Shown: positions 52,578 through 64,000, counted from the stretch's first letter. The stretch is DNA of 64,000 nucleotides from Candidatus Bipolaricaulota bacterium (GCA_030606565.1 JAUWGE010000002.1:36107-100106), one strand, 5' to 3'. A program made the numbers and translations. The notes: generated by a model not told the origin, from the sequence alone.

Positions 52578-54662
52578 CTAGATCGTTAGATCAAGCTTAA
52601 TCTGAAGGATCAGTTCATCGCTATCCTTTGTTGGATCATTCCAGTCTACTACGTTCTTCCACGCCAAGGAGAAGGAGATGTCCAGACCATCGGCGATCTC
52701 TCCGTCCCACGAGAGCTCAGCGTGGCGCGTTTCCTTGACCAATGTCTCATTTGACAGGGCTGTCAACGTCCGCTTCGTCTCATCGCTCAGCTGGAGCTGA
52801 AAGGTTCCTTCTGCGACCTCCCAAGAGGTGTCCAGGCTGATTGTCGTCTCCCTCGAAGTGGGTTTAGCGGCATTATTGGGGTGAGCGGTCACCTTGTTTG
52901 TGAGTCCAGCCGAAATGCTCGCCTCAGAAAGATCGAAATCGAGCTGTAGACCGATCTCCTGTACCCATTGGTCCTTCTTGCTGGCGTGAGGGTAGGTCGT
53001 CTGTTGATGAAAGAGCGTCAGCGCAAGGTCGCCGCAGGCCATCTCATTCTCGACTGATCCCTCCCATTTTCGCAAGGAACGGTTCTTGACCGTAGCATTG
53101 GGGTAGACCAGTTCTTCTCGCTCGAGATAGCCGCTGATCGTGGATGCGGACTCATCCCTGGTGTAGCTCACCTTTTGGGTAGACGTGTCACGATTGAGCA
53201 GGCTATCCGCCGGGTAGGTCTTGTTCTCCCACTCAAGGTCGAGCGTCAGGTCTCCGTCATGGAATGGGAAGCCGCACGACAACGGGATGTCAAGCTGCCG
53301 AATTCGCTTACGCGGAAGGATCAACAGCGCCTTGTCCGCCAAGAGCTGGGCAGCGTCGGAGGTGATATCACCATCCCATTTCGCATCGTAGACCTCATCG
53401 ATGAAATCCTCCAACTGGTCGACGGCCTCTCTGCGATCCCCGGCTACAAGTTCCCCCAACGCGCCCTCTTCTCCCAACTCCTTTAGCAGGTCATCTTCCA
53501 CCGCTGCGGGCAGCCCCAATGCGCGCACCTCGTCGATGAGACTCTGAATCGCTGCAATCGCTTGTGAAACCCGGGCGGGCTCAATCTCATCGTCGATATA
53601 GTTTGGGTAGGACTCGGAGTCAAAGGAGACCGACCCCGATGCCGCCCAAGGATCGCGATCCCAAGAGAGCGCAAGGTCGAGACTGTGGCTGATCCTGTCT
53701 TTATCGTCCTTCAACCGGTCCGTGTAATCACGATGTTCCTGCTCGTAGTTGATAGAGGTCCCCCAGTCCTCATCTTCAAACCCCGCCCCAATCTCCAAGT
53801 CCGTCGTATGAACGTCCTTGCTCGGGGCACGGTAGTCATCCGACTCCCAAGTGAGCGTACCATCGAGGTCAATACCCCCAACCGTAGTCGATAGCTCTAG
53901 CTCCCAGAGGCGCTCTGTCCCCTGCTCTTGCACCTTTCGCAGCAGGTAGTCGCCCTTGTACCTGATCCTGTCTGCCTCTTCCTCCTTGATCGCCTCGCCA
54001 CGGTATTGATCAATACGGACTAGAAGCTTCTCTAAATCGCGAATATAGTCTGCCTTGTTGCCATCGGTGAGGTGAAGGACGGTCTCCCGCAAGAGGCTCG
54101 CGATCTGCGGCTTCACCTCATCCCTTGTGTATTTTCTGACCTTGTTTACGATGCACTTCAAGTAGTCGTAGCGTTGCTCGATCGGCTTTGCAACGACAAG
54201 GAGCCTTCCCTTATCCGTACGAGAGATTTCTAGGCAATCGTTCACACGATCGATAAACTGCTTGTCAAGTGCCTTCTCGATGTCCTTCAGCTTATGATAT
54301 AGAGTATCGATTGAGATCCCATTGCCAGCGTTCCTGATCTCAGCAAGAGCAGCCTCAGCCTGCCCGAGCGCCTGTTCCAATGTGTCTTTAAGCGTGCCTG
54401 GGGGCAGGGTGTCTGTCTCGCTGCGAAGGTCATTTAGCGTTCTAAGACTCACTCCACTTAAAACCCCTTCCACGGTGTAGTCCACGTCCATCGATATATC
54501 CGCAAGCGCAGAGGAAAGAGTAAACTGCGATTCTAAGTTAAGCTTTTGCTCGGCAAGGCCTACGATGTCCTGGGTGAAGGAGAGCGCATCCTCCTGTTTA
54601 AAATCGATCGTTTGCGAGAGGGCCGGCGGGGTTAGAAAAAGGAAAAACAAAGCCCAAATCAC
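52578..54662 (-). CDS. large hypothetical secreted protein (acidic, beta-rich C-terminal half)
   Basis: 694 aa with signal peptide MIWALFFLFLTPPALSQ. No recognisable catalytic motif. The C-terminal third has an alternating hydrophobic pattern suggestive of beta structure. Confidence 0.55.
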   Translation of the reverse strand: MIWALFFLFLTPPALSQTIDFKQEDALSFTQDIVGLAEQKLNLESQFTLSSALADISMDVDYTVEGVLSGVSLRTLNDLRSETDTLPPGTLKDTLEQALGQAEAALAEIRNAGNGISIDTLYHKLKDIEKALDKQFIDRVNDCLEISRTDKGRLLVVAKPIEQRYDYLKCIVNKVRKYTRDEVKPQIASLLRETVLHLTDGNKADYIRDLEKLLVRIDQYRGEAIKEEEADRIRYKGDYLLRKVQEQGTERLWELELSTTVGGIDLDGTLTWESDDYRAPSKDVHTTDLEIGAGFEDEDWGTSINYEQEHRDYTDRLKDDKDRISHSLDLALSWDRDPWAASGSVSFDSESYPNYIDDEIEPARVSQAIAAIQSLIDEVRALGLPAAVEDDLLKELGEEGALGELVAGDRREAVDQLEDFIDEVYDAKWDGDITSDAAQLLADKALLILPRKRIRQLDIPLSCGFPFHDGDLTLDLEWENKTYPADSLLNRDTSTQKVSYTRDESASTISGYLEREELVYPNATVKNRSLRKWEGSVENEMACGDLALTLFHQQTTYPHASKKDQWVQEIGLQLDFDLSEASISAGLTNKVTAHPNNAAKPTSRETTISLDTSWEVAEGTFQLQLSDETKRTLTALSNETLVKETRHAELSWDGEIADGLDISFSLAWKNVVDWNDPTKDSDELILQIKLDLTI

Positions 54663-54805
54663 AAAAAAGCTTCCAAAGAAGCCATCCCGCTGCGAGCCTA
54701 TCTTTCACCTCCATAGAATGCCGTAGGGTCCGTGACCCCATGACCCCAAAGTATGCCCGTCACCTGTTGTAAAATTCAATGGTAGACCCCATACTACGAC
54801 GCGCC

Positions 54806-54922
54806 TTAGAGACCTGGTCTTTGGCTGATTGCTGAGAGCTGCCCGCTGATAGCTTTTTACCGCAGAAGCGCTGAAGTCACAGAGTGAAGTGACATGGTAG
54901 AGGCGCGAATTGCGGTATCCCG
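54806..54922 (+). repeat. intergenic repeat family, copy A (core ~117 bp)
   Basis: TTAGAGACCTGGTCTTTGGCTGATTGCTGAGAGCTGCCCGCTGATAGCTTTTTACCGCAGAAGCGCTGAAGTCACAGAGTG...GGCGCGAATTGCGGTATCCCG aligns with copy B (55950..) and copy C (57069..). Confidence 0.8.
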
Positions 54923-55040
54923 CCCCCCTCTCCCTCTCTCCCCATCGCCCCCTCTCCCTCTCCGCACTCTCCGCCCTCCGCATTCCGAACTCATCCTTCC
55001 CTCTTCCTCTTCTCTTTTCCCCACCGGTCCAGTACAGTAA
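54923..55040 (+). repeat. polypyrimidine (CT-rich) tract following repeat copy A, ending in the shared tail TTTTCCCCACCGGTCCAGTACAGTAA
   Basis: About 100 nt that are almost entirely C/T on the + strand (CCCCCTCTCCCTCTCTCCCC...). A similar tract and tail follow copy C at 57181..57292. Confidence 0.8.
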
Positions 55041-55149
55041 TAGAGGGGTTATCTTTGTGCTGGTGCCAAGCGGTTGTCTATCTCTTGTCTTTGAGTTATC
55101 ATAAAATTGATTGGGCTGATTAGAAGGGCAGGAGGGGAGGGAGTACGCT

Positions 55150-55425
55150 ATGGCGGTGAGTACCAAGATCCCGAATGATCTGGATAAGCAAACCTTTGCC
55201 AAGCGGGCTAAAGCCCTTTACAACCACAGATACCGCAAGAGACTTGAAGCGGCCGAGTGGGGTAAAGTAATTGCCATTGAAGTGGAAAGCGGGGAGGTTT
55301 TCATCGGCCGTACAGCTTTGGAAGCTGGATTAAAGGCTCGAGAGAAATATCCTGATAAGTTCTTCTACTTTATCCGGATCGGATATCCGGCAGTTCACTG
55401 TCTAAAGAGCCCTGGCAAGCCGTGA
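55150..55425 (+). CDS. small partner protein of retropepsin-like protease module (DUF5678-like)
   Basis: 91 aa with a ...GKVIAIEVESGEVFIGRTALEAGLKAREKYPDKFFYFIRIG pattern. The stop overlaps the start of the downstream protease gene. Confidence 0.55.
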   Translation: MAVSTKIPNDLDKQTFAKRAKALYNHRYRKRLEAAEWGKVIAIEVESGEVFIGRTALEAGLKAREKYPDKFFYFIRIGYPAVHCLKSPGKP

Positions 55426-55805
55426 GTTATCTCGGAAAGGTGTTCTTACAAGGGTTCATCAACGATAATCTGGAGCCAATAGTGGAGAACGTTATCTTAG
55501 TCGGTAAGGAAGAGCGGATTTCACTAGAAGCCATTCTGGACACCGGTTTTAATGGGATGTGCTGCTTGCCAAGGAAGTTCCAACCCCTGTGCGAGCTCAA
55601 TGCTCTCGGCATAGAAACTTTCGAGTTAGCCGATGGAACCTTGGTTGAAGAAGAACTATACGTGGGACAAATTCTCGTGGGTGACGTTTGTTATTCCGTT
55701 GAGCTGACCCTGACTGATGCCGATCGAGCCCTGTTAGGTATGCAATTGTTGCTAGATAAAGTTGCTATCTTCGACCTTAAGACGATGCGAATCGAGGTGA
55801 AATAA
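55422..55805 (+). CDS. retropepsin-like (clan AA) aspartic protease
   Basis: 127 aa with the catalytic motif ILDTGFNGMC (D-T-G), which is a retroviral-type aspartyl protease fold signature. Translationally coupled to the upstream small gene. Confidence 0.65.
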   Translation: MSYLGKVFLQGFINDNLEPIVENVILVGKEERISLEAILDTGFNGMCCLPRKFQPLCELNALGIETFELADGTLVEEELYVGQILVGDVCYSVELTLTDADRALLGMQLLLDKVAIFDLKTMRIEVK

Positions 55806-55949
55806 GGAGCGGGTTCAGTTGGAGCCCTGGTATGGTATGCGCACAACCGGTCGCTGTGGCTCGATCTGATCATTCGGTAAACCGCGGGTCTACGCAACGC
55901 TAGTCGAGAATCGATGCACTACTACCTTCCAGCAATCAGTTTGCGCATC

Positions 55950-56080
55950 TTAGAGGCCTGGTCTTTGGTTGGCAACTGGCAGCTGATAGCTTTTTACCGC
56001 AGAGGCCTTGAAGTCACAGAGTGGGGATGACACGTTAAGGGCGCGAATCGCGGTATCCCGAAATCATTTTGTGTCAAGTG
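55950..56080 (+). repeat. intergenic repeat family, copy B
   Basis: TTAGAGGCCTGGTCTTTGGTTGGCAACTGGCAGCTGATAGCTTTTTACCGCAGAGGCCTTGAAGTCACAGAGTGGGGATGACACGTTAAGGGCGCGAATCGCGGTATCCCGAAATCATTTTGTGTCAAGTG. Confidence 0.8.
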
Positions 56081-56148
56081 CCCCCGGGTCCTATGGACAT
56101 CAGACTTCGGACTAAGTAGACTATCAGCTATAGGAAGGGGTGTTTTTA

Positions 56149-56445
56149 ATGGTGCTAACAGTACGGACGCAAGAGCTGCTGGAAAAGGTATTGGCAGTCC
56201 TGCCGACTGCTGAGGATGAGGTTATCACTAAGGGCATCACCAGTAGCGTGGCCGATCGGATTCTGGAGTTGAAGAGATCCGCCCACCGCTTGAAGGAGAC
56301 CTATGGCAACGTTGAGAAGCTGGAGAAACGGATCGAGGAGGAAAGTGTCTCCGCGGACGATCATACACTCTACAATGACCTCCTGGAGTGGCGGGCAACT
56401 CTGGACGAGTTGGATAAACTGTTGCAGATTCTAGAATCCCTCTGA
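56149..56445 (+). CDS. hypothetical small helical protein (first gene of a coupled small-gene string)
   Basis: Start MVLTVRTQELLEKV... with an RBS-like GGAAGGGG upstream. The stop overlaps the next start (TGATG). Confidence 0.45.
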   Translation: MVLTVRTQELLEKVLAVLPTAEDEVITKGITSSVADRILELKRSAHRLKETYGNVEKLEKRIEEESVSADDHTLYNDLLEWRATLDELDKLLQILESL

Positions 56446-56843
56446 TGCCAGTCTCTCCGTCTTGGCACCAGAGGGTTCGAACCAGCCTAGAAGCGTCGGG
56501 TATCTTTGCTGGTGTGAAGATCATAGGAGCTAAGGTGCGCGGGGTCATCAGCAAGGAGCTGTATGTGGACATCTATTATGACCCAACCACCAACAGTTAC
56601 TCCTATGCCTTGATCGATCAAACCCTTCCCTATCCAGGGGACAAGCGAGTCTTTCTTTGGGTGGGATGACTATCCACACAAGAACGTGCGGAAATCAAAC
56701 AGCTCGAAAGCTTCCCGCACCATTTCCAGAAACGAAACAAAGAAGGATGGATCTTTGAGGAGTCTCCGATGCGCGGGAACGTGAAGGGCGAGATGGACTT
56801 GGTAATCAAAATGGTGAAAGAATATCTGAAAACATCAACATGA
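56445..56843 (+). pseudogene. small ORF interrupted by an in-frame TGA at 56667-56669; the frame stays coding-like to 56843
   Basis: Reads MPVSPSWHQRVRTSLEASGIFAGVKIIGAKVRGVISKELYVDIYYDPTTNSYSYALIDQTLPYPGDKRVFLWVG, then TGA, then continues in the same frame as LSTQERAEIKQLESFPHHFQKRNKEGWIFEESPMRGNVKGEMDLVIKMVKEYLKTST. Confidence 0.4.
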
Positions 56844-57022
56844 GAATTGAGCAGTTTGAGGATCTTTTAAGACCCTACGTTGAGGGTTTCAGATTTATGG
56901 AAGATGGTTCAAGTCAAGAAATTGGTTTAAGGATATTGAAATTTGGAGAGCGGCGAGGAGCTGTCCCAAGAAGGCAGCCTTCAGCAATCATGATTCAGCG
57001 GTCAGGAAGTGACAATCAGTGA
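56840..57022 (+). CDS. hypothetical small protein (third coupled ORF)
   Basis: 60 aa, with ATGA start/stop overlap with the preceding reading frame. Weak support. Confidence 0.3.
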   Translation: MRIEQFEDLLRPYVEGFRFMEDGSSQEIGLRILKFGERRGAVPRRQPSAIMIQRSGSDNQ

Positions 57023-57068
57023 TCAGTTTACAACAACCCATTACTCACCGGCTTTCACGCTTTTGCTT

Positions 57069-57171
57069 CTGGCTGAATGCTAATTTACCGGTAGAGGCGC
57101 TGAGGTTGCAGCGAGAGATGACACGTCAAGGGCGCGGATCGCGGTATCCCAAAATCGTTTTGTGTCAAGTG
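57069..57171 (+). repeat. intergenic repeat family, copy C
   Basis: CTGGCTGAATGCTAATTTACCGGTAGAGGCGCTGAGGTTGCAGCGAGAGATGACACGTCAAGGGCGCGGATCGCGGTATCCCAAAATCGTTTTGTGTCAAGTG. Its 3' half is nearly identical to copy B. Confidence 0.8.
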
Positions 57172-57180
57172 TAGGCCTGA

Positions 57181-57292
57181 CCCTCTGCTGCCCCTGCCTC
57201 GACTTGCTTTTCCTTCTCCCCCTCTCCGTGTCGCCCCCTCTCCCTATCTCTCCTTTTCCCCTTCGGCTTTTCCCCACCGATCCGGTATACTA
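57181..57292 (+). repeat. polypyrimidine (CT-rich) tract following repeat copy C, ending in the shared tail TTTTCCCCACCGATCCGGTATACTAA
   Basis: CCCTCTGCTGCCCCTGCCTCGACTTGCTTTTCCTTCTCCCCCTCTCCGTGTCGCCCCCTCTCCCTATCTCTCCTTTTCCCC... It sits directly upstream of the RBS of the 57310 gene. Confidence 0.8.
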
Positions 57293-57309
57293 AGAAAATC
57301 CAACCGGAG

Positions 57310-58117
57310 GTGAGTCTCATGATGAGACGGCCTTACTTCATCCTTCTTTCCTTGCTGCTCATCGCGGTCCCTATTCTTGGCGGTGACTTGCCCCAGGTCG
57401 TTCAGCCTAACACAACAGGCTATTCGGCCACAGAGGTTGCCGCTCTTGTCCGAGAGATCTCCGCCCTCGAAGAAACGCTCAACGATCATTCCTTCGGCTC
57501 ACGGCGCAGCTTTGCCCCCAACGGGTGGCAGGGCCGCAACTTTGCCGAGTACACCGGGGGAGTCCTCGCCGAGCGGGGATACCCAATTACGCTCGCCAGC
57601 CAACCTGGCTGGCCCGACGGCGTCCATACGTGGGCTCTCAACTGGAGGACAAACGGCCTGGGTCCCGGTGGAAGCCTCCCCGGAACCTGGGAACAGCCAG
57701 CGGAGCCTCGGCTATGTCCCGAGCTATTCAGACAGTACCGGAGACCTGTGGTTCGAGGCGACGTATCTTGACTTCAACGAGGCAGTGAGCCTGCCGGCAA
57801 ATCTCCCACCCGTTGCGAAGATTCGCCCACCCTCCCCTCCTGTTGTGATCAATAAGGGCGTCAGAATCTTCACGGTTGGTTCTCACGACCCAGATGGGGA
57901 AATCGTGCTTTATCGATGGGACTTTGGCGATGGAAATATCAAGACAGCCACAGCATCCAGCATCCGCCACAAGTTCAGAAGACCCGGCACCCATACCGTC
58001 TCCTTGACCGTTGTTGACAACCGCGGCAAGAGCGCTGCCACCAGCGTCACCATCTCGGTTATGGAGCCTGATGGGAGTGTAGCCCCATCCGACGGGGGGT
58101 GTGGGTGTGGGACTTGA
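57310..58117 (+). pseudogene. secreted PKD-domain protein, apparent frameshift between ORFs 57310..57771 and 57377..58117
   Basis: Signal peptide MMRRPYFILLSLLLIAVPILG in frame 1. The PKD domain (YRWDFGDGNIKTATASSIRHKFRRPGTHTVSLTVVDNRGKSAATSVTISV) is in frame 2. The plausible junction is near 57690-57710. Confidence 0.55.
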
Positions 58118-58476
58118 AGATGAACTGAACCGCTTCATTGTGTTCGTTTCCGAGAAGGAGGCCCAACTACTTGAGCAAGTTCCAACGGTACGTCAAACGA
58201 TCGCTTGCTCTCCTCCTATGGCTTACTGGCACGGATAGTCTGACTATCCCGTTTTGAGCTAGCCGTTGAAAACAGGCTCTTCTTACGGTAGTTACTAGAC
58301 TGTAGTTTTCGATCCCAGGGGCCTGTCATCATAAAATCCCGAGATGAGGAAGCCTTTTATCTTCCAGGCTGTATAAAACAAAACCCTCTTTTCTCCTTCC
58401 TTTATCCACAGAACCTAAGAACCAAAAAAGGGCCCTGGCGAACCAGGGCCCTGTATTCACTTGAGTTAAACCTGGG

Positions 58477-60426
58477 CTACCAAATGAAGCCAAAACCCAG
58501 GCTGAAGATCTCCCATCCGCGGAAGGAAACCTCGGAACCAACGGTGAGGGTGAAGTTCGAGAAGAGCGAGACGCTGACATTGACGTCGGTCGCCATCCAG
58601 CTAAACAGCTGGTTGAGCTGGCCGACCTCGGTGTAGTTGGCGTCCTGTGTGAACTCACAGTAGTATACGGGTTCCGCCGGATCCAGGAAGCAGCACTCTT
58701 TCTCATAATCTTTAATGCAGATGCAGCCACAGAACTCTGGATCGGCCTCGTACTCCTTCCCGATGTAGTTGTCGATTGTGATCTCGTAGGCGCCGCCGCA
58801 GCAGGCATCCCCAGCGAGCACGATACCGAACGACTCCCAGGCGTAGTACTTGTACTTGGGCGTCTCCCAGTACTCGAGGTGGATCCCATCGTCAGGACCC
58901 GTGAGGTCGCCGTCGCCATCGTCTTCGAACGGCGGACACCAAGCGGCACAGCCAGTCGGAACGAGGAACCGCAGCATCTCATCCGATGAGATCGTCTTTA
59001 AAGCGTTTGTCGGCAGGTCGTAAAGCACGGTCTTGAAGGTAGCCGTTGCGCCGTTGAACTCACAGGTGAGCGAGAAGTCCTTGATGTCGATCCCGGTCAG
59101 CTTGTTCGCGATAGAGTTGTGTGACTCGTCCTCTTTCCAGTTGGCGAGAAGGGTCATGCTGAAACAGGTATCGAGCCCGAAGCTGGGCTGGCCGCACAGC
59201 GCGAACTCCTTCTCATCGGTGGTTAACTTGATCGAGGCCGTGAGGTCGTAGAAGCCGGGGATGAACGGGATGTCCTTCACGAGGAACTGCAGGTACTCAA
59301 AGCCGACAACCGCCGTCGTGAATGTGCAATCCTCATCCCAGGAAGGCAAGTAGATGGGGATTAGCGTCCCATCAGGCATCACATACTCCTTCAACAGCTC
59401 GTCCTCGCACACGCAGGTGAGGGTCTCCGACTCCTCAGGGCAGACAAGCTTCAGGGCCACATCAAGGGTGGTGTTGCAGCAGAAGGGGATTCCCTCTACC
59501 ATGAAGTATTCCTCGATGAAGCCAATGCCACACCCTGCGGCAACGGCGTAGTTGCCCTTCTTGCCAAGCACGGGACAGCCGGAATCGGTATCCGCCTTCT
59601 TATCCGACTCGGTCATGTTGAAGTAGGTGAAGCTGGTGAAGTTCATACCGCCCACGCTGCCGGCGAGATTCAGCCGGAATCCGGCCCCGATCGGAGTCGA
59701 CCCAGGAACGGTGCAGGTGCCAGTCTGAAGCACGTCTACACCAACAGCATGCGTAGAGCCACTCTGCGGCACGTGCGTCCAGTAGATGTTCTCCGGCATC
59801 TCAACCGGGAATAGGTACTCAGTACAGACGTCCCACAAGAAGATGTCTGTTATGGTGGTCGTCCCGGCCCAGGCGTTCATCAGGAACAGGCCTCCAAGCT
59901 GAACTCCGGCGAGGCTAATATCCACAGCCAGCTCAAAGTCCTTAAACGCTGGCCCAGTTACCTCGGCCCAGCGGTCGAGGCTGCACCCTGGGAAAAGCGT
60001 GAGTACGGTGGTCTTGCAACAGGTAGCGGCGAAATTGTTGTAGAGGTACCAGGGCCAGATCTGGGCTGGGTCAATCCCCCCCCACCATCCCTGCGTCTTT
60101 GTTAGGACGGCAGAAGGCAGGAACTCCATCTTGGCAGCGAGGTTAATCGCCCCGAGGCTGCCTGCGGCGCTGAACTCCTGGGCGTTGAAACCGTGCTGGG
60201 CGTCGAAGCTAGACTTGCTTTCAAAGACGAACCCACCCACGGTATAGTCCACTACCAAGTCGGAACTTAAGCCCCATATCTCCCACCATTGGTAGGGACA
60301 TGGGCTTCCCAACTTATAGAGGTCAAAAGTGTATGTAAAGTCCCAACTGCCTGTAAACGTCTGGGCGGATACTAATGCACCACCCGCCAACACCAACATA
60401 CATGCTATTACGAGAGCTTTCTTCAT
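58477..60426 (-). CDS. large Cys-rich secreted protein, candidate outer-membrane beta-barrel/porin-like partner of the upstream SLH protein
   Basis: 649 aa with signal peptide MKKALVIACMLVLAGGALVSA, more than 30 Cys, beta-rich composition and a C-terminal aromatic end ...SLGFGFIW. The SD AGGAGGTAATGATAG precedes the ATG. Confidence 0.6.
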   Translation of the reverse strand: MKKALVIACMLVLAGGALVSAQTFTGSWDFTYTFDLYKLGSPCPYQWWEIWGLSSDLVVDYTVGGFVFESKSSFDAQHGFNAQEFSAAGSLGAINLAAKMEFLPSAVLTKTQGWWGGIDPAQIWPWYLYNNFAATCCKTTVLTLFPGCSLDRWAEVTGPAFKDFELAVDISLAGVQLGGLFLMNAWAGTTTITDIFLWDVCTEYLFPVEMPENIYWTHVPQSGSTHAVGVDVLQTGTCTVPGSTPIGAGFRLNLAGSVGGMNFTSFTYFNMTESDKKADTDSGCPVLGKKGNYAVAAGCGIGFIEEYFMVEGIPFCCNTTLDVALKLVCPEESETLTCVCEDELLKEYVMPDGTLIPIYLPSWDEDCTFTTAVVGFEYLQFLVKDIPFIPGFYDLTASIKLTTDEKEFALCGQPSFGLDTCFSMTLLANWKEDESHNSIANKLTGIDIKDFSLTCEFNGATATFKTVLYDLPTNALKTISSDEMLRFLVPTGCAAWCPPFEDDGDGDLTGPDDGIHLEYWETPKYKYYAWESFGIVLAGDACCGGAYEITIDNYIGKEYEADPEFCGCICIKDYEKECCFLDPAEPVYYCEFTQDANYTEVGQLNQLFSWMATDVNVSVSLFSNFTLTVGSEVSFRGWEIFSLGFGFIW

Positions 60427-60612
60427 TCTATCATTACCTCCTTACATGTACGTACGTACACTCTCTTTTGCTTTTGACAAGAAGCACGCTCTCTCACCAA
60501 GTTTTTTAAGAGTGTAATCACCTCCTTAGTTCTTGTAGGTTCCGCCTCTCCACTAGATCTTGTCCCTACTATAACACACAAAAAGGTCGATGTCAAGTGA
60601 TCGATATCACCT

Positions 60613-61272
60613 TCAAAGGCCGAGTGTTGCCAGTGCTACAGCGATAATCCCTATAAGAAGTGCCGTCAAAGAGATGATGAAGTTGGCGTTTATGCGATTT
60701 AGGAGCTTTCCAGATGGGCCTTGCTCTTCGAGTTGAGCGATCTGTTGCTCGTTACGCGCTACCCGCGCCTCCAATGGGGAGCTACCCCCTCCCACAAGTG
60801 AGTCCATCTGCGCCTGGAGGCTTGAAAGGTTGTCTGAGACCTTGAATATCAGGTCCTTTAGGATATCTAGATCCTGCGGGGTGACTGACTCGGGGTTGTT
60901 TTGAAGGTAGCGGATCGCTCGCGCGATCAGCGCGGCAGCGGAGTAGCGGTCGAGCGGTTGGTCTCCTTGGTAGCTTCCCCCGGGAAGCCCGGTGATGATC
61001 CCACGCTCGACAAGGTATGAAAGATCATCGTAGGCCCAGTGGTCCCGTGGGACATCACTAAACAGTCCACCGGCCTGCGGTGGCTGCGCAGTTCCATTCC
61101 CTGCTCCCCCATCCCCAAAGGCGATGCCACCCAGAAAAAGGGATAGGGTCGCGATCAACAGGATGACAAATAGATTCTTTTTCACCTTGAAAACCCCCTC
61201 TTCTTCACAGAATCGATAAAGCAGTATAGAGCTTGTTTCGCTCTGAGTCAATAACTGGCTTTTAGCCGCCAA
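60613..61272 (-). CDS. SLH-domain / coiled-coil / C-terminal TM anchor protein (Omp-alpha-like)
   Basis: SLH motif FSDVPRDHWAYDDLSYLVERGIITGLPGGSYQGDQPLDRYSAAALIARAIRYL. Coiled-coil segment (LSSLQAQMDSL...EARVARNEQQIAQLEEQ). C-terminal hydrophobic helix IISLTALLIGIIAVALATLGL. Confidence 0.75.
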   Translation of the reverse strand: MAAKSQLLTQSETSSILLYRFCEEEGVFKVKKNLFVILLIATLSLFLGGIAFGDGGAGNGTAQPPQAGGLFSDVPRDHWAYDDLSYLVERGIITGLPGGSYQGDQPLDRYSAAALIARAIRYLQNNPESVTPQDLDILKDLIFKVSDNLSSLQAQMDSLVGGGSSPLEARVARNEQQIAQLEEQGPSGKLLNRINANFIISLTALLIGIIAVALATLGL

Positions 61273-61372
61273 TCAGCTATCAGCAGTCAGCTAAAAGCCA
61301 AACTGCAAAGACCGACAAGCCAACGTATGAAATGTAGGTTGCTTCTTGCCGTAAGCTGAGAGCTGATCACTG
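61270..61372 (+). repeat. degenerate copies of the intergenic repeat family (one inverted, one direct fragment)
   Basis: CAGCTATCAGC...CAAAGACC (61274-61313) is the reverse complement of the GGTCTTTG...GCTGATAGCTG segment of copies A/B. GCTGAGAGCTGATCAC (61355-61370) matches the CTGAGAGCTG segment of copy A. Confidence 0.55.
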
Positions 61373-62149
61373 CTTCACCTTGAAGCTTCGGCGGTGGATC
61401 GATGATGGACCGAGGCGCTTGAGCGCCGCAAGATGAGCAGGCGTCCCGTATCCCTTGTTAGAATCGAGTCCATATCCAGGGTATTGAGCGTTAAGCTTGA
61501 CCATCATCCGGTCACGATAGACCTTGGCGAGGATGGAAGCAGCCGCGATGTGAAGGGAGCGGGAATCCCCTTTGGTGAACGACAGCGCGGGAGGGCGAGA
61601 AATTGAGTGATTGAGAGATTGAGTGATCGGGGGATTGGAAGATTGAGAGATTGAAAGATTGAGTGATTGAGTGATTGAGTGATCGGATGATTGAGAGATT
61701 GGATGGTTGGGAGTTCTAGGTTGTAAATGATTCAATCTCTCACTCGCTAAATCTCTCAATAGTGTGAGCCCGCGGTCGAGCAGGAGGAGGTCGACCGGGT
61801 GTCTCATGGCGCGATAGGCGCGCTGGGCGGCAAGGGTTAGGGCAAGAACGATCCCGACACGATCGATCTCGGACGGTGTAGCGTAGCCGATCCCCCAGTT
61901 AGAGACGGAAGTGATCCGGGGAAAGAGCGCCTCCCGCCTCTTTGAGGAGACCCGCTTGGAATCGTCGATCCCAGCGAGGAAATCAAGAATCGATGTTCCA
62001 CGTCGGGCATGAAGCCCGACGCTACAGGGATTCCTTTCCTCCTCAACGTCGGGCATGAAGCCCGACGCTACAGGAATGTGGACACAGCAGACGACAACCG
62101 GACCGGCAAGGGCCCCACGACCCACCTCATCGAAGCCGGCAATCTCCAT
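61367..62149 (-). CDS. rnhB: ribonuclease HII with internal low-complexity insertions (the ORF is open to 62467)
   Basis: Canonical N-terminus MEIAGFDEVGRGALAGPVVVCCV at 62149, and C-terminal RNase HII region (SKRREALFPRI..., KGDSRSLHIAAASILAKVYRD). An in-frame 8-bp tandem array and an extra insert (VASGFMPDVEEERNPCSVGLHARRG) interrupt the fold. Confidence 0.8.
   Translation of the reverse strand: MEIAGFDEVGRGALAGPVVVCCVHIPVASGFMPDVEEERNPCSVGLHARRGTSILDFLAGIDDSKRVSSKRREALFPRITSVSNWGIGYATPSEIDRVGIVLALTLAAQRAYRAMRHPVDLLLLDRGLTLLRDLASERLNHLQPRTPNHPISQSSDHSITQSLNLSISQSSNPPITQSLNHSISRPPALSFTKGDSRSLHIAAASILAKVYRDRMMVKLNAQYPGYGLDSNKGYGTPAHLAALKRLGPSSIHRRSFKVKQ
61601..61713 (+). repeat. tandem repeat (GATTGAGN)x14 inside the rnhB reading frame
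   Basis: Fourteen consecutive 8-bp units (gattgagt gattgaga gattgagt gatcgggg gattggaa ...). On the minus strand they encode an 8-aa periodic SITQSLNH-like insert. Inverted partial copies (CAATCTCTCACT, AATCTCTCAAT) follow at 61731-61762. Confidence 0.85.
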
Positions 62150-62453
62150 GGTTTTTATTCTTTTCGTTTCACCGCAGAGATCGCGGAGGCCACAGAGGTT
62201 TTTACCTCTATAGGAGTTCTCCGCGTTCTTTGCGTACCTGGGGGGTGTAGTAAATCCCTCTCCGGACACTACACCCCCCGAGACGGTAGAAGCTTTTGAA
62301 AACGGACGTCGGACGTTGGGGACAAGGCCCTCAACGTCGGGCGTAAAGCCCTCAACGTCGGGCACAAGGCCCTCAACTACAGAGGAGCGGATCTGTTCGT
62401 CGAAGGCGTAGAGCTCACGCACGCGTAAAACAGGTGAGGAGGGGTTCTTGCTC

Positions 62454-63341
62454 CTAGTTTTTGCCATGAAGGCTGAAGTAGCCGTTCATCGGCCCAAAGC
62501 GGGGAAGCGGCCACACACGCAGGTACGGCTCGCCGATGAGGTCGTCCTCATCGACAAATCCCCAGAAACGCGAATCCCAGGAGTCCTCCGAGTTATCCCC
62601 GAGGACAAACCACTTACCTTCCGGGACGAGAGTCGGAGTTACCCCGTAGTGCATACGGGGGTCGCTCGAGGTGTAGTGGCGGTCAAAGCGCGGGCCTTTA
62701 AGTTTCTCTTCGTTTAGATAGATGTCCCCGCCCTTGATATATACGGTTTGCCCTCCTACGGCGATCAGCCGCTTTACATACCGTACTTTCTTTTCACGCC
62801 CCAAAATCCCTAAATCGGCAAGCGAATCGATTCCCACTTCTCTTAACCCCAAGTCCAGTTGGCGGCCTTCATACAATGCAAGATAGATGTGCGTTCCCTC
62901 AGGGAGGGAAGCGATAATCTCATCTGCCCCGGCGGCGACCGCTTGCTGGTTTATATAGATGATCCGATCTTTAACATTAAGACCGGCGCGTGCGGCCCGT
63001 GAGCCGTCTTTTACTTCCTTCACCAGAACCGCTTCGGTGTGCCAAAAGACAACGATGTCCCCTGGCTTGGGATCGCGGAAATAGTAGGAGATCTTATCGA
63101 CAAAGAAACTGTCGGCCACAAGTACACTACGGTCGCCATTGATCGTTGGGTACATCGAATCAGTGGGTACGTGCATGCGCACGGTGACAAAGCTGATCAC
63201 AAGAAAAGCAAGGACACCCGCGACAACAAGGACCTCAACCCACTCCAGGATCTCGCTTGATACTCGCCCGGGGTTATAGCCGAAACGGCGAACCAGGCGC
63301 AGGATGAACGCTTGCTTCTTCTCCTTCTTTTTTCTTTTCAT
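62454..63341 (-). CDS. lepB: signal peptidase I
   Basis: 295 aa with TM anchor, catalytic Ser box PTDSMYPTI, and GDNSEDSWDSRFWGFV (box E). Confidence 0.85.
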   Translation of the reverse strand: MKRKKKEKKQAFILRLVRRFGYNPGRVSSEILEWVEVLVVAGVLAFLVISFVTVRMHVPTDSMYPTINGDRSVLVADSFFVDKISYYFRDPKPGDIVVFWHTEAVLVKEVKDGSRAARAGLNVKDRIIYINQQAVAAGADEIIASLPEGTHIYLALYEGRQLDLGLREVGIDSLADLGILGREKKVRYVKRLIAVGGQTVYIKGGDIYLNEEKLKGPRFDRHYTSSDPRMHYGVTPTLVPEGKWFVLGDNSEDSWDSRFWGFVDEDDLIGEPYLRVWPLPRFGPMNGYFSLHGKN

Positions 63342-63665
63342 CTAGTGGATGCGCCGCAGGCGGCGGAGGAAATAGGGTTTCGCCTGGCGGGTACGGTGGG
63401 ATCTCACTAGTTCAATGGCCTCGATCTTGGGGGAGTGGACGGGATAGGTCTTCTCCACCCCGATCCCGGAGGAGACCTTGCGCACGGTCACCATCTCCCG
63501 CGTACCGGCCCCGCTCCGCTTAAGGACGATCCCCTCGAAGATCTGGATCCGCTCCTTTGACCCCTCGGAGACCCGCTCGTGCACCTTGACGATGTCCCCA
63601 GGAGAGAACTCCTCCCTTTTCTCCTTTAGGTATTCTTTTTCCACAGCTTTTAAGATGTCGTCCAT
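63342..63665 (-). CDS. rplS: 50S ribosomal protein L19
   Basis: 107 aa reading FSPGDIVKVHERVSEGSKERIQIFEGIVLKRSGAGTREMVTVRKVSSGIGVEKTYPVHSPKI, the L19 signature. Confidence 0.9.
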   Translation of the reverse strand: MDDILKAVEKEYLKEKREEFSPGDIVKVHERVSEGSKERIQIFEGIVLKRSGAGTREMVTVRKVSSGIGVEKTYPVHSPKIEAIELVRSHRTRQAKPYFLRRLRRIH

Positions 63666-63674
63666 TATCTCCTC

Positions 63675-64000
63675 CTAACGCTCTCCTACCACGCGGTCGA
63701 GGACGATCGCCACTGCCGCCCGCACCGATAGGTGATTGAAGTCACTTTCCACCATGATCGGTGGCAGGATAACGTCGCAGACATCGATCAACTCGTCGGC
63801 CATCCCCCACCCCGTTCCAAACAGGATGTATACCGGCCCTCCCTCATTGCGCAATCTCTCTTTCAACTTAGCACAAGTAATACACTGCTTTCCCTGCCGC
63901 CGCGCCGAGGTAGCGACCAGTAGTGGTGAGCCCCCCTCTGCCTCGCGGATCCAATCTGTTGTCTCCTCCAGATCACCGGCGACAAAGACAAGCTCGAGCG
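63675..64000 (-). CDS. SPOUT (SpoU/TrmH-like) RNA methyltransferase, C-terminal part; gene continues beyond window end
   Basis: The frame is open to 64000. The C-terminus FGTGWGMADELIDVCDVILPPIMVESDFNHLSVRAAVAIVLDRV matches the SpoU pattern G.E..G...E....CD..h.IPM.G...SLNVS.A..I.LYE. Confidence 0.45.
   Translation of the reverse strand, partial: LELVFVAGDLEETTDWIREAEGGSPLLVATSARRQGKQCITCAKLKERLRNEGGPVYILFGTGWGMADELIDVCDVILPPIMVESDFNHLSVRAAVAIVLDRVVGER

Follow-up and report, generated by a model that had tools for sequence, protein, structure and literature searches.

Repeats at the junctions of a variable toxin-antitoxin cassette island in an uncultured Bipolaricaulota bacterium

Within the 64-kb stretch of DNA analysed here (the window), we identified a rapidly changing chromosomal locus in an uncultured Bipolaricaulota bacterium, at which repeats form non-coding "seams" between small toxin-antitoxin cassettes (Table 1). 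These repeats are neither integron sites, genome-wide mobile elements nor gene leaders, and on balance it is probable that cassettes are gained, lost and shuffled through them.

Table 1. Coordinates of the island, its repeats and cassettes, and neighbouring features in the window.
Feature	Position	Strand	Description
FIMAH-domain gene	52578-54662	-	5' region conserved up to 54710
Variable cassette island	54711-57195		Between the FIMAH-domain gene and the native PKD operon upstream region
Junction-motif remnant CAATGGTAGACCC	54777-54789	+	GTAGRCC variant; 13 nt, at the island's left edge
Copy A	54806-54922	+	TTAGAGACCTGGTCTTTGG, GCTGANN heptamers, core parts c1 and c2; ends abruptly after GGTATCCCG
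Polypyrimidine tract and tail before TA1	54924-55036	+	Duplicate of the PKD promoter region; -10-like TACAGT
Cassette TA1	55037-55813	+	Promoter-like site, 91-aa gene, 127-aa gene
TA1 promoter-like site	55074-55102	+	TTGTCT-17-TATCAT, predicted
TA1 91-aa gene	55150-55425	+	
TA1 127-aa gene	55422-55805	+	DTG clan-AA aspartic-protease-like; TIGR03698, E 3.6e-7, below curated cut-off
Copy B	55930-56080	+	Lead-in (55930-55949), TTAGAGGCCTGGTCTTTGG, heptamers, core parts c1, c2 and d; ends after GTGTCAAGTG
Cassette TA2	56091-56928	+	Promoter-like site, antitoxin-like gene, frameshifted toxin, ORF stump
TA2 promoter-like site	56094-56122	+	TGGACA-17-TAGACT, predicted
TA2 98-aa antitoxin-like gene	56149-56445	+	
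TA2 TumE-like toxin gene	56445-56843	+	Frameshifted; PF20126 match on the L016 copy
Copy C	57038-57195	+	Complete long form (c1', c2, d, e); ends ...GTGTAGGCCTGACCCTCTGCTGCCC
Native PKD operon upstream region	57196-57309	+	Polypyrimidine tract, tail with -10-like TATACT, ribosome-binding site GGAGGTG
PKD-domain secreted protein ("module 3")	57310-58117	+	Core gene; frameshifted in this assembly, two overlapping ORFs
Separate palindromic element	61271-61366		96 nt; arms are inverted heptamer arrays

The island is embedded in a gene order conserved on related Bipolaricaulota/Acetothermia contigs, UvrB-UvrA-beta-helix-FIMAH-(island)-PKD-OMP-SLH-rnhB-lepB-rplS, and position 54710 marks the end of left-hand homology with all relatives. 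Synteny is kept among strain groups X, Y, Z and V and locus L082, with island content differing throughout: one cassette was found in L097, two in the window, at least five in L095 and at least nine in L083, and gene calls placed no cassette genes between the PKD and beta-helix genes of L082. The surface-protein genes adjoining the island are hypervariable. Cassettes have been gained, lost and reordered among strains ~96% identical in uvrA, the baseline being 96.1-96.7% among the window, X and Y. Cassette types include RelBE, HicAB, TumE-like, HEPN/MNT, HTH/DUF4160 and a DTG aspartic-protease pair, many of them toxin-antitoxin-like, and in strain X cassettes lie on both strands. Family matches within the island comprise RelB, HicA/HicB, TumE and GxxExxY, together with a weak MqsA-like match, and precomputed Pfam hits in the islands of relatives correspond to YafQ/ParE, HEPN/MNT and DUF4160 with HTH. 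Conserved flanking genes, varying content and a predominance of toxin-antitoxin-type pairs thus characterize the locus as a variable toxin-antitoxin islet.

The earlier note on this DNA had described three cassette-like modules delimited by repeats. For modules 1 and 2 (TA1 and TA2) this description holds, with repeats at the seams: both recur in close strains at 96-98% identity (TA1, 96.3-96.9% in X and Y; TA2, 97.5% to L016 and L083), with sharp, reproducible ends and with different neighbours and order. Found inserted between them in relatives were RelBE, HicAB, HTH/DUF4160, a 75/77-aa pair, GxxExxY and a DUF4258/MqsA-like pair. TA2 additionally carries the 5' stump of a further ORF. Module 3, on the other hand, is no cassette but a conserved core gene, with orthologues at the same position in L079-L082, L083, L097 and L100. 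Nor do the genes of modules 1 and 2 look promoter-less, as had been supposed, each module having a promoter-like site of its own. The cassette ends have no motif in common (GTAATAGAGG...AAGGAGCGGG for TA1; TATGGACATC...CAAGAAATTGG for TA2), and thus give no evidence of a uniform mechanism of the integron kind.

Flanking the cassettes is a duplication of host sequence. The polypyrimidine tract and shared tail previously noticed beside copies A and C are both real, but rather than extending the repeat family they represent a duplicated PKD promoter region. The segment preceding TA1 aligns with the PKD gene upstream region of W (the window strain), X, Z, V and L081, homology with X restarts at 54924, and the tail TTTTCCCCACCGRTCCRGTA occurs exactly twice in the window, at 55015 and 57268. 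Upstream of the PKD gene itself, the tail, -10-like box and ribosome-binding site are kept in all strain groups. The whole inserted block sits between the two promoter region copies, each of tract plus tail; strain Z possesses a single tract-plus-tail copy and no + strand cassettes, as an empty site compared with a filled one.

The three same-orientation repeat copies were recovered where the earlier note had placed them, A at 54806-54922 and B at 55950-56080, with the end points of C revised: its first boundaries, 57069-57171, were too short for what is a 156-nt unit common to L095. The core GGCGCG-AT-GCGGTATCCC is present three times in the 64-kb window (at 54902, 56040 and 57131), compared with 0.04 occurrences expected by chance. 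Pairwise identity is 80.7% for A and B (119 nt), 83.1% for B and C (89 nt) and 74.6% for A and C (67 nt), rising to 90% (48 nt) for A and B and 93% (55 nt) for B and C in the best stretches. Copy B is a chimera, its left part being A-like (90%) and its right part C-like (93%); at its position, X retains the lead-in and heptamers with the core absent, and Y carries a short core with a complete right end. Copy C (57038-57193) is 96.8% identical over 156 nt to the L095 copy, with flanks differing on both sides, and 98.4% identical to L016 over 64 nt. Given that W_C is nearer to Y_1 (96.8%) than to W_A or W_B, the copies belong to old sub-families that have since been shuffled.

Searches for further copies, proposed in the earlier note, confirmed these three and located none outside the island in the window and 24 related loci. 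A repeat scan of the whole 64-kb window returned no additional copy; neither did a covariance model of the element (R1, representing only the 3' part of the repeat), which scored copies A, B and C at 38.2 (over 54878-54940), 62.4 and 108.8 bits, respectively. All R1 matches fell inside the island across ~260 kb (the window plus 24 related loci). The core pattern occurs once in L016, a species-representative metagenome-assembled genome, a scan of 241 million metagenome records added one related contig (L063), and viral, plasmid and phage collections gave no core pattern match. The earlier note had weighed confinement to one locus and lack of conserved structure against a repeat family. Neither condition decides the question: the repeats are indeed confined to this locus and have no significantly conserved structure, but they recur here in several strains and at cassette junctions. 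They are also not duplicated 5' ends of paralogous genes, the other origin considered there.

Two further regions had been assigned to the family as degenerate pieces. That at 61270-61372 is a different element, a palindrome 99% identical to L079 9599-9694 at a different genomic position; its resemblance to the 5' portion of A and B is limited to GCTGANN heptamers and GGTCTTTG, and it has no R1 match. The second, 62168-62206, has only ACCGCAGAG and CACAGAG in common with the repeats and, by eye, differs from the 14-mer by 3 mismatches; lying beyond the 2-mismatch limit and giving no match to R1 (which covers the 3' part only), its membership is not supported.

The element is non-coding, and comprises a GCTGANN heptamer array followed by a 75-156 nt core ending ...GGCGCGGATCGCGGTATCCC-AAAATCGTTTTGTGTCAA-GTGTAGGCCTGACCCTCTGCTGCCC, with a conserved unit of ~75 nt that terminates ...GTAGGCCTGACCCTCTGCTGCCC. 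Most spacers, like the repeats over their 5' half, consist of arrays of 7-nt units (GCTGANN, CCCTCTC, CACTCAY); strain X spacers hold in addition other repeated blocks of 62-109 nt without an obvious role. At six distinct sites in three strain groups (W_A, W_B, W_C, Y_1, Y_2 and X) the element keeps one orientation along the FIMAH-to-PKD axis. At least four different partners adjoin its right end, the joints lying within 1-3 nt of ...CTCTGCTG(C/T)CC: the PKD upstream region in the window, TA1 at Y_1 (...CTGCTGCCC followed directly by GTAATAGAGGGG), an unknown cassette at Y_2 and the 75/77-aa cassette in X, coincidences which rest on few events (~six independent sites, three close strain groups). 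The end part of the motif alone, GTGTAGGCCTGACCCTCTGCT, precedes the HicAB cassette in L063, and the 9-mer GTGTAGGCC lies on both sides of the 75/77-aa cassette in X. The exact 13-mer at the island's left edge in the window also occurs, in the same orientation, at the L063 element junction and beside the HicAB cassette of L100/L101. In the window, which is arranged A-TA1-B-TA2-C, one copy is complete (C) and two have truncated right ends, and in strain X the core is missing before TA1, TA2 and the PKD gene. Since A and B are truncated at different points and the core is missing in X, many junctions were not formed at the element end.

The core is dispensable for the cassettes, whose counterparts in L016 and L083 lack it upstream. 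The earlier suggestion of a shared promoter or leader module is not borne out, as in the window the core is situated ahead of the predicted -35 boxes, and an element upstream of the cassette promoters is not a leader. Folding, suggested as a check for conserved secondary structure, yielded no significant conservation: the consensus structure pairs 98% of 106 cells, but holds only a single compensatory pair, and its score was equalled by 166 of 500 shuffles, the copies being few and too similar. Minimum-free-energy folds of A, B and C differ on both strands and do not pair the 5' end of the unit with its 3' end, unlike an attC-type hairpin, and only copy A folds better than shuffled sequence (z-score -2.8).

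How the repeats relate to cassette turnover can be read in several ways. On the reading that we hold to be somewhat probable, the island would be a hot spot that stacks small, self-promoted two-gene cassettes, and the directly repeated seams and duplicated promoter would offer places at which DNA is joined during cassette addition, deletion and reshuffling. A cassette with its seam might loop out, or recombine in at another seam, and toxin-antitoxin addiction would counter-select loss, giving the cassettes a stabilising role; joining could proceed by general homologous recombination, by microhomology or through a site-specific enzyme. Against such seams, no recombinase is linked to the island, either among the window ORFs (ten by Pfam, the rest by eye) or within 10 kb in L083 and L082 (precomputed Pfam hits), and neither a circular intermediate nor a population-level deletion variant was observed in the single assembly of this strain's island. 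The element could also be a passive flank copied along with the cassettes. This possibility, which we regard as rather unlikely, would make the repeats functionless intergenic DNA, i.e. heptamer arrays and the leftover 3' flank of an older cassette, multiplied by local segmental duplication and subsequently eroded, with cassette turnover due to unrelated illegitimate recombination. It would account for the truncation of A and B and their divergence (75-83% pairwise identity), for the dispensability of the core in strain X, for the non-significant structure and for the other repeated blocks among the X spacers. It would be harder pressed to explain the variety of partners at the same element end, the constant orientation at six sites, and a long form conserved at the genome baseline (96.8%) though non-coding and relocated, and we infer that the seams are a recombination substrate, not passive passengers. 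A more specialised variant, which we judge unlikely, is that the ~75-nt element serves for attachment in an undescribed cassette system unlinked to any integrase, cassettes being joined site-specifically at the C run after GTAG(G/A)CC...CTCTGCTG by a recombinase or HUH enzyme encoded elsewhere, e.g. host Xer.

Quite improbable, in our estimation, is a small non-autonomous element, mobile in the manner of MITEs or IS200/IS605 PATEs, inserting beside heptamer arrays with a transposase supplied in trans from elsewhere. The 156-nt long form begins and ends alike in the window and L095, with different flanks on each side, W, Y and X differ in having or lacking the core at one and the same position ahead of TA2, the same genomes hold a second, clearly mobile 96-nt element, and TTAC, as read from the sequence, stands ahead of the long form at its left end and ahead of c1 in A, B and C, resembling IS608 targets. 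However, the unit ends take part in no inverted-repeat pair, no target duplication is visible beside the 156-nt unit in either the window or L095, no transposase was found among the window ORFs, and upstream of TA2 the filled and empty sites do not differ by a clean insertion; the known copies all share one island and one orientation, and the single match in the representative genome, with none in the viral, plasmid and phage collections, is not the dispersal expected of MITEs. The MITE-delimited modules envisaged in the earlier note are accordingly not supported, none of the MITE hallmarks tested having been seen. Doubtful, too, is a cis-acting RNA or DNA signal between cassettes, such as an insulator, terminator or small regulatory RNA. 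A GC-rich hairpin (GGGCGCGRATYGCGG..CCC, then AAAATCGTTTTGTGT) has its pairs kept in 8 of 8 copies, its loop-closing pair being G-C, G-T or A-T; in two stems the sole changes are to G-T, a pair tolerated only by the + strand, and B and C lie downstream of + strand operons. Yet covariation is not significant, the folds differ among copies, a terminator scan gave no match at the repeats, and Rfam returned none, whether the gathering threshold was applied or E was relaxed to 10. Moreover, in X the element directly adjoins the 3' end of an operon on the - strand and copy A follows no + strand gene, so that position is inconsistent with respect to transcription.

Most remote of all is a degenerate integron cassette array, that is, an attC cluster lacking an integrase (CALIN), whose sequence features are already refuted. 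Toxin-antitoxin cassettes are typical of chromosomal integrons, and the alternation of repeat, small gene set and repeat every ~1.1-1.2 kb resembles CALINs and chromosomal (super)integron arrays with homogeneous attC sites, e.g. the 120-130 bp repeats of Vibrio cholerae: all have short cassettes, often toxin-antitoxin, spaced ~1.1 kb apart, ~100 nt repeats in one orientation, content that differs between close strains, and one end that meets many partners. Nevertheless, no RYYYAAC...GTTRRRY pair was detected at a spacing of 50-150 nt when both strands of the island and of every 2.66-kb tile of the window were scanned, and the copies have no whole-site imperfect palindrome in common. The absence of an integrase and of attC-like cores reported in the earlier note therefore stands, for the window ORFs and the R''/R' pair scan. 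In contrast to integron arrays, the island is without R''/R' boxes, whole-site hairpin, IntI or other tyrosine recombinase (window ORFs; relatives within 10 kb), attI or Pc, its cassettes carry promoter-like sites and lie on both strands in relatives, many cassette junctions lack the repeat, and the cassette ends lack a common core site.

Other known systems offer partial parallels. Xer-dependent pdif modules of Acinetobacter plasmids are likewise small, often toxin-antitoxin modules with no linked recombinase, which move between short recombination sites through a host enzyme encoded elsewhere; pdif sites, however, are 28-bp XerC-6-XerD sequences in inverted orientation on plasmids, whereas the present elements are 75-156 nt, direct and chromosomal, and by-eye inspection of the element revealed no dif-like 11-6-11 architecture. 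Toxin-antitoxin and defence hot spots (genomic islets) share conserved flanks, variable small genes and rapid turnover at ~96% identity, but are usually described without a dedicated, orientation-fixed junction element or a duplicated host promoter, both of which this island has. Cyanobacterial short tandemly repeated repetitive (STRR) heptamers and REP/BIME sequences resemble the 7-nt unit arrays in the repeats' 5' half and most spacers, and the junction motif holds GTAGGCC, also the 7-mer heading the E. coli REP sequence. STRR and REP sequences occur scattered over the whole genome, with copies numbering from tens to hundreds, whereas the island core is confined to one locus; a REP is a palindrome of 20-40 nt with an associated RAYT transposase, whereas the core is not a simple palindrome, no palindrome follows its GTAG(G/A)CC, and neither a RAYT gene nor any HUH/Y1 gene is present in the window.

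Mechanistic understanding of cassette arrays is almost restricted to integrons, and the present case comes from a candidate phylum without cultured genetics, in which toxin-antitoxin cassettes turn over at ~96% identity around an orientation-fixed seam and a duplicated host promoter, with no integrase seen. If the seams are not crossover points, the locus would amount to a common type of toxin-antitoxin islet whose spacers are repetitive; in both cases, exact junction sequences are provided. If the element were an attachment site, the island would represent an integron-like toxin-antitoxin array without attC or IntI. If the seams are crossover points, the island would exemplify a second, independent route to gene-cassette arrays, homology-driven or via a site-specific enzyme, and would provide a concrete case of addiction modules stabilising a repeat-rich, deletion-prone locus.

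The repeats between the FIMAH-domain gene and the PKD-domain gene are best explained as seams in a hot spot for toxin-antitoxin cassettes, formed by an orientation-fixed, island-specific element together with a duplicated host promoter. The three direct copies (A, B and C) described in the earlier note were borne out by reading positions 54000-64000 and by repeat searches: the 20-mer GGCGCGAATCGCGGTATCCC, allowing up to 3 mismatches, matches at 54902, 56040 and 57131 only, with 0.04 matches expected by chance in the 64-kb scan. Identities are 80.7% over 119 nt (A/B), 83.1% over 89 nt (B/C) and 74.6% over 67 nt (A/C), with top blocks of 90% (A/B, 48 nt) and 93% (B/C, 55 nt). All three copies are present at 100% identity in Logan contig L001, an independent assembly from the same sample, and exact-protein look-ups for further assemblies of this strain (W) returned the same contig only. 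The alignments (A3, A4) took in eight copies, which represent six separate sites and three strain groups, and a covariance model built on A4 (R1) scored the window copies at 108.8, 62.4 and 38.2 bits; elsewhere in ~260 kb it matched twice in strain group Y, once in each contig of group X and nowhere else. Every copy has the same orientation relative to the FIMAH-to-PKD axis.

Genes in the window run in the order UvrA, a beta-helix protein, the 694-aa FIMAH-domain protein (- strand), the repeat region and the secreted PKD-domain protein, followed by a 649-aa outer-membrane-like protein, an SLH protein, RNase HII, LepB and L19. Two toxin-antitoxin-like cassettes, TA1 and TA2, lie among the repeats, each with sharp ends and its own predicted sigma-70-like site. 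TA1 pairs a 91-aa gene with a 127-aa DTG clan-AA aspartic-protease-like gene, whose product matches TIGR03698 at E 3.6e-7, under the curated cut-off; TA2 pairs a 98-aa gene with a TumE-like toxin gene. The latter carries a frameshift in the window and a differently placed one in two contigs of group X (L016 and L083), which may reflect independent toxin inactivation or assembly error.

Coordinates of the repeats, cassettes and neighboring elements
Feature	Locus	Positions	Remark
Copy A	Window	54806-54922	
Copy B	Window	55930-56080	
Copy C	Window	57038-57195	
156-nt unit at copy C	Window	57038-57193	96.8% identical to Y_1, an element site in Y
CAATGGTAGACCC variant	Window	54777-54789	Left edge of island
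Block between direct repeats	Window	55037-57195	
TA1	Window	55037-55813	
Genes of TA1 (module 1)	Window	55150-55805	
TA1 sigma-70-like site	Window	55074-55102	TTGTCT-17-TATCAT (predicted)
TA2 (module 2)	Window	56091-56928	
TumE-like gene	Window	56445-56843	
TA2 sigma-70-like site	Window	56094-56122	TGGACA-17-TAGACT (predicted)
PKD gene (module 3)	Window	57310-58117	Broken into two overlapping frames
Surface-gene stretches compared	Window	52578-54662; 57310-60426	Against L083, L094, L097
Palindromic element	Window	61271-61366	96 nt; inverted TCAGCNN / NNGCTGA heptamer arrays form the arms
rnhB (RNase HII)	Window	61367-62152	- strand
rnhB insert 1	Window	61602-61701	8-nt tandem array, ATTGAGTG x12.5
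rnhB further inserts	Window	61997-62077	Two 35-nt units encoding VASGFMPDV
lepB-rnhB gap repeats	Window	62233-62283; 62313-62377	Hairpin unit plus 21-nt x3 array
Hairpin units in GxxExxY gene	L016	5985-6030; 6130-6175	
Spacer blocks	L083	8090-8254; 9385-9541	157-165 nt, ~87% identical (BLAST alignment)
Spacer blocks	L083	7351-7459; 13205-13313	109 nt, 87% identical
Inverted repeats of GxxExxY cassette	L083	12092-12121; 12498-12527	30 nt, CACGAAG-type units
Insertion sequence	L092	1560-2930	384-aa ORF with weak HTH matches; terminal inverted repeats

Searching for homologues with the flanking proteins and the 127-aa protein yielded the relatives, whose contigs keep one gene order on either side of a variable center. 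Of the genes called in L082, none is a cassette gene in the interval from PKD to beta-helix, and group Z (L097) has DUF4160+HTH only. The window carries TA1 and TA2; Y (L095) has HEPN/MNT, a truncated ParE-like gene read from sequence, TA1, RelBE and further content; and V (L100) has HicAB and MNT. Group X (L083-L092, L016, L063, L099) holds an MNT-like gene (in certain members, a HEPN/MNT pair), 73/90-aa and 75/77-aa pairs, HTH/DUF4160, TA1, RelBE, TA2, GxxExxY and DUF4258/MqsA-like genes, and differs internally by an extra HicAB cassette in L063, an insertion sequence in L092 and deletions in L086. The L092 insertion sequence lies within a GCTGANN heptamer array, directly past the RelBE cassette. 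The PKD gene, counted in the earlier note as a third cassette module, is a core gene, being found at one fixed position in all the relatives.

Identity of uvrA to the window (X 96.5%, Y 96.1%, L099 96.7%) marks these strains as very close relatives of W. TA1 (96.3-96.9%) and TA2 (97.5%) sit at this baseline, and it is the surface genes that are unusually divergent, not the cassettes: the FIMAH (77-80%), PKD (~65%) and outer-membrane-like genes fall far below uvrA, the last having no match whatever in L083. Transfer of cassettes between species, considered from the 97% cassettes versus 65-80% PKD/FIMAH identity, was dropped in view of the 96.1-96.7% uvrA baseline. These comparisons show cassettes being rapidly gained, lost and reordered beside cell-surface genes that are hypervariable or swapped for other alleles. 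The larger X island also has repeated spacer blocks of its own, each pair of which in L083 lies beside different cassettes, so repeated seams are a general trait of the locus and not specific to the window. The L083 GxxExxY cassette is bracketed by a simple-repeat vocabulary other than that at other cassettes.

Across strains, the element comprises a conserved 3' unit of ~75 nt in the eight-copy alignments, made up of segments c2, d and e (ACGGTAAGGGCGCGGATCGCGGTATCCC, AAAATCGTTTTGTGTCAA and GTGTAGGCCTGACCCTCTGCTGCCC, respectively), and a variable part 5' of it. A further segment of ~35-37 nt, c1, exists in two types, one shared by A and B and the other by C and Y_1, and is missing from a short form found in X and at Y_2, the other Y site. 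GCTGANN heptamer arrays occur farther upstream of the unit, accompanied in A, B, X and Y by the motif TTRGAGGCYYGGTCTTTGG; the idea that the arrays always point toward the downstream cassette fails at several L083 spacers. Copy C is part of a discrete 156-nt unit, and as its counterpart Y_1 sits between the truncated ParE-like gene and TA1, both flanks of this unit differ between the window and Y.

At its right end, no more than 1-3 nt from ...CTCTGCTG(C/T)CC, the element meets any of four partners: the region upstream of PKD (copy C), TA1 at GTAATAGAGGGG (Y_1), a cassette of unknown type (Y_2) and the 75/77-aa cassette (X). In X the 75/77-aa cassette has GTGTAGGCC at both sides, and where X reads GTGTAGGCC followed by ATGGCC, L063 has just the terminal portion of the motif (GTGTAGGCCTGACCCTCTGCT) preceding its inserted HicAB cassette. 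The variant CAATGGTAGACCC stands at the window island's left edge and also occurs at the L063 element and beside V's HicAB cassette. Weighing against this junction pattern, the cassettes' own ends have no motif in common. The 5' motif TTAGAGGCCTGG of A and B resembles the 3'-end GTAGGCCTGA; as it is never seen joined to other partners, the resemblance is taken as unproven and the candidate second att core was set aside.

The tail TTTTCCCCACCGRTCCRGTA, described earlier as shared by the extensions of A and C, indeed occurs exactly twice in the window, and the polypyrimidine tracts are degenerate tandem units of 6-9 nt. W, X, Z, V and L081 all conserve, ahead of the PKD gene, CTTCTCTTYCCCCCACCGATCCGGTATACTAA followed ~10 nt on by GGAGGTGACTCGTATG, the predicted promoter and ribosome-binding region of the PKD operon. 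A diverged duplicate of this promoter region precedes TA1 in W and X, ending just beyond the -10-like box; it is absent in Y, where TA1 abuts the element, and Z has a single copy and zero + strand cassettes. By virtue of this duplication, the inserted block is bracketed by direct target repeats. Circular DNA recombining into a matching site would leave such repeats, and deletion between them would restore the Z state.

Under the seam interpretation, DNA would be joined at these points whenever cassettes are added, lost or shuffled, whether through general homologous recombination, microhomology at the run of C that follows every junction (truncated A and B included), or an unlinked site-specific enzyme. 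The descriptive side of this interpretation has good support, and an active role of the seams as recombination substrate is an inference. Its main rival holds the repeats to be passive flanks under erosion: C is the sole complete copy in the window, B ending after GTGTCAAGTG and A after GGTATCCCG, and X has no core before TA1, TA2 or the PKD gene, so that many joints must have formed elsewhere than at the element. Membership of the integron arrays, whose likeness the earlier note raised, is excluded on the features tested, there being no R''/R' attC boxes, no common whole-site hairpin and no integrase; nor is any recombinase or transposase evident among the window ORFs (ten examined by Pfam, the remainder by eye).

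A mini-element mobilized in trans is less likely. Inverted ends, duplications and dispersal are all absent, contrary to the suggested MITE (or a REP) identity; viral contigs, plasmids and phages gave zero matches to the element pattern, and among 31 loci from one genome per species and 45 from metagenome contigs, one each was real (L016 and L063, respectively) and the rest chance. Also less likely is an insulator or small-RNA role. The shared leader proposed earlier was not supported and a known RNA was likewise rejected: Rfam yielded nothing relevant across the window at gathering threshold or across the island at E up to 10, and a tRNA/tmRNA scan gave nothing near the island. Minimum-free-energy structures disagree among copies, and one compensatory pair (G-C, G-T, A-T), closing a GC-hairpin loop, is suggestive but not significant, being equaled in 166 of 500 shuffles; the element is not demonstrably structured. 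Interpretation as a gene was rejected: B contains a stop codon, A and B differ by a frameshift in the only open frame, and a 37-nt indel separates the long form from the short.

Two degenerate pieces further downstream had also been assigned to the family. Kinship of that at 62168-62206 was not supported, and that at 61270-61372 proved to be a separate palindromic heptamer-array element; as L079-L081 have a 99% identical copy at a different genomic position, ahead of their PKD gene, it looks like a mobile, MITE-like element belonging to this lineage. The adjacent rnhB frame stays open across repeat-derived inserts, and its L082 orthologue has other inserts encoding the same peptide. The hairpin unit of the lepB-rnhB gap (GGGGGGTGTAGTAAA...ACTACACCCCCC) occurs twice within the L016 GxxExxY gene, is absent there in L083 and L081, and looks like another small insertion element.

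Literature searches on Bipolaricaulota toxin-antitoxin systems and on STRR/heptanucleotide repeats found nothing on such an island. The locus belongs to known kinds, namely cassette arrays and toxin-antitoxin islets, and would be of high interest only should a novel site-specific system for joining DNA underlie the coincident junctions.
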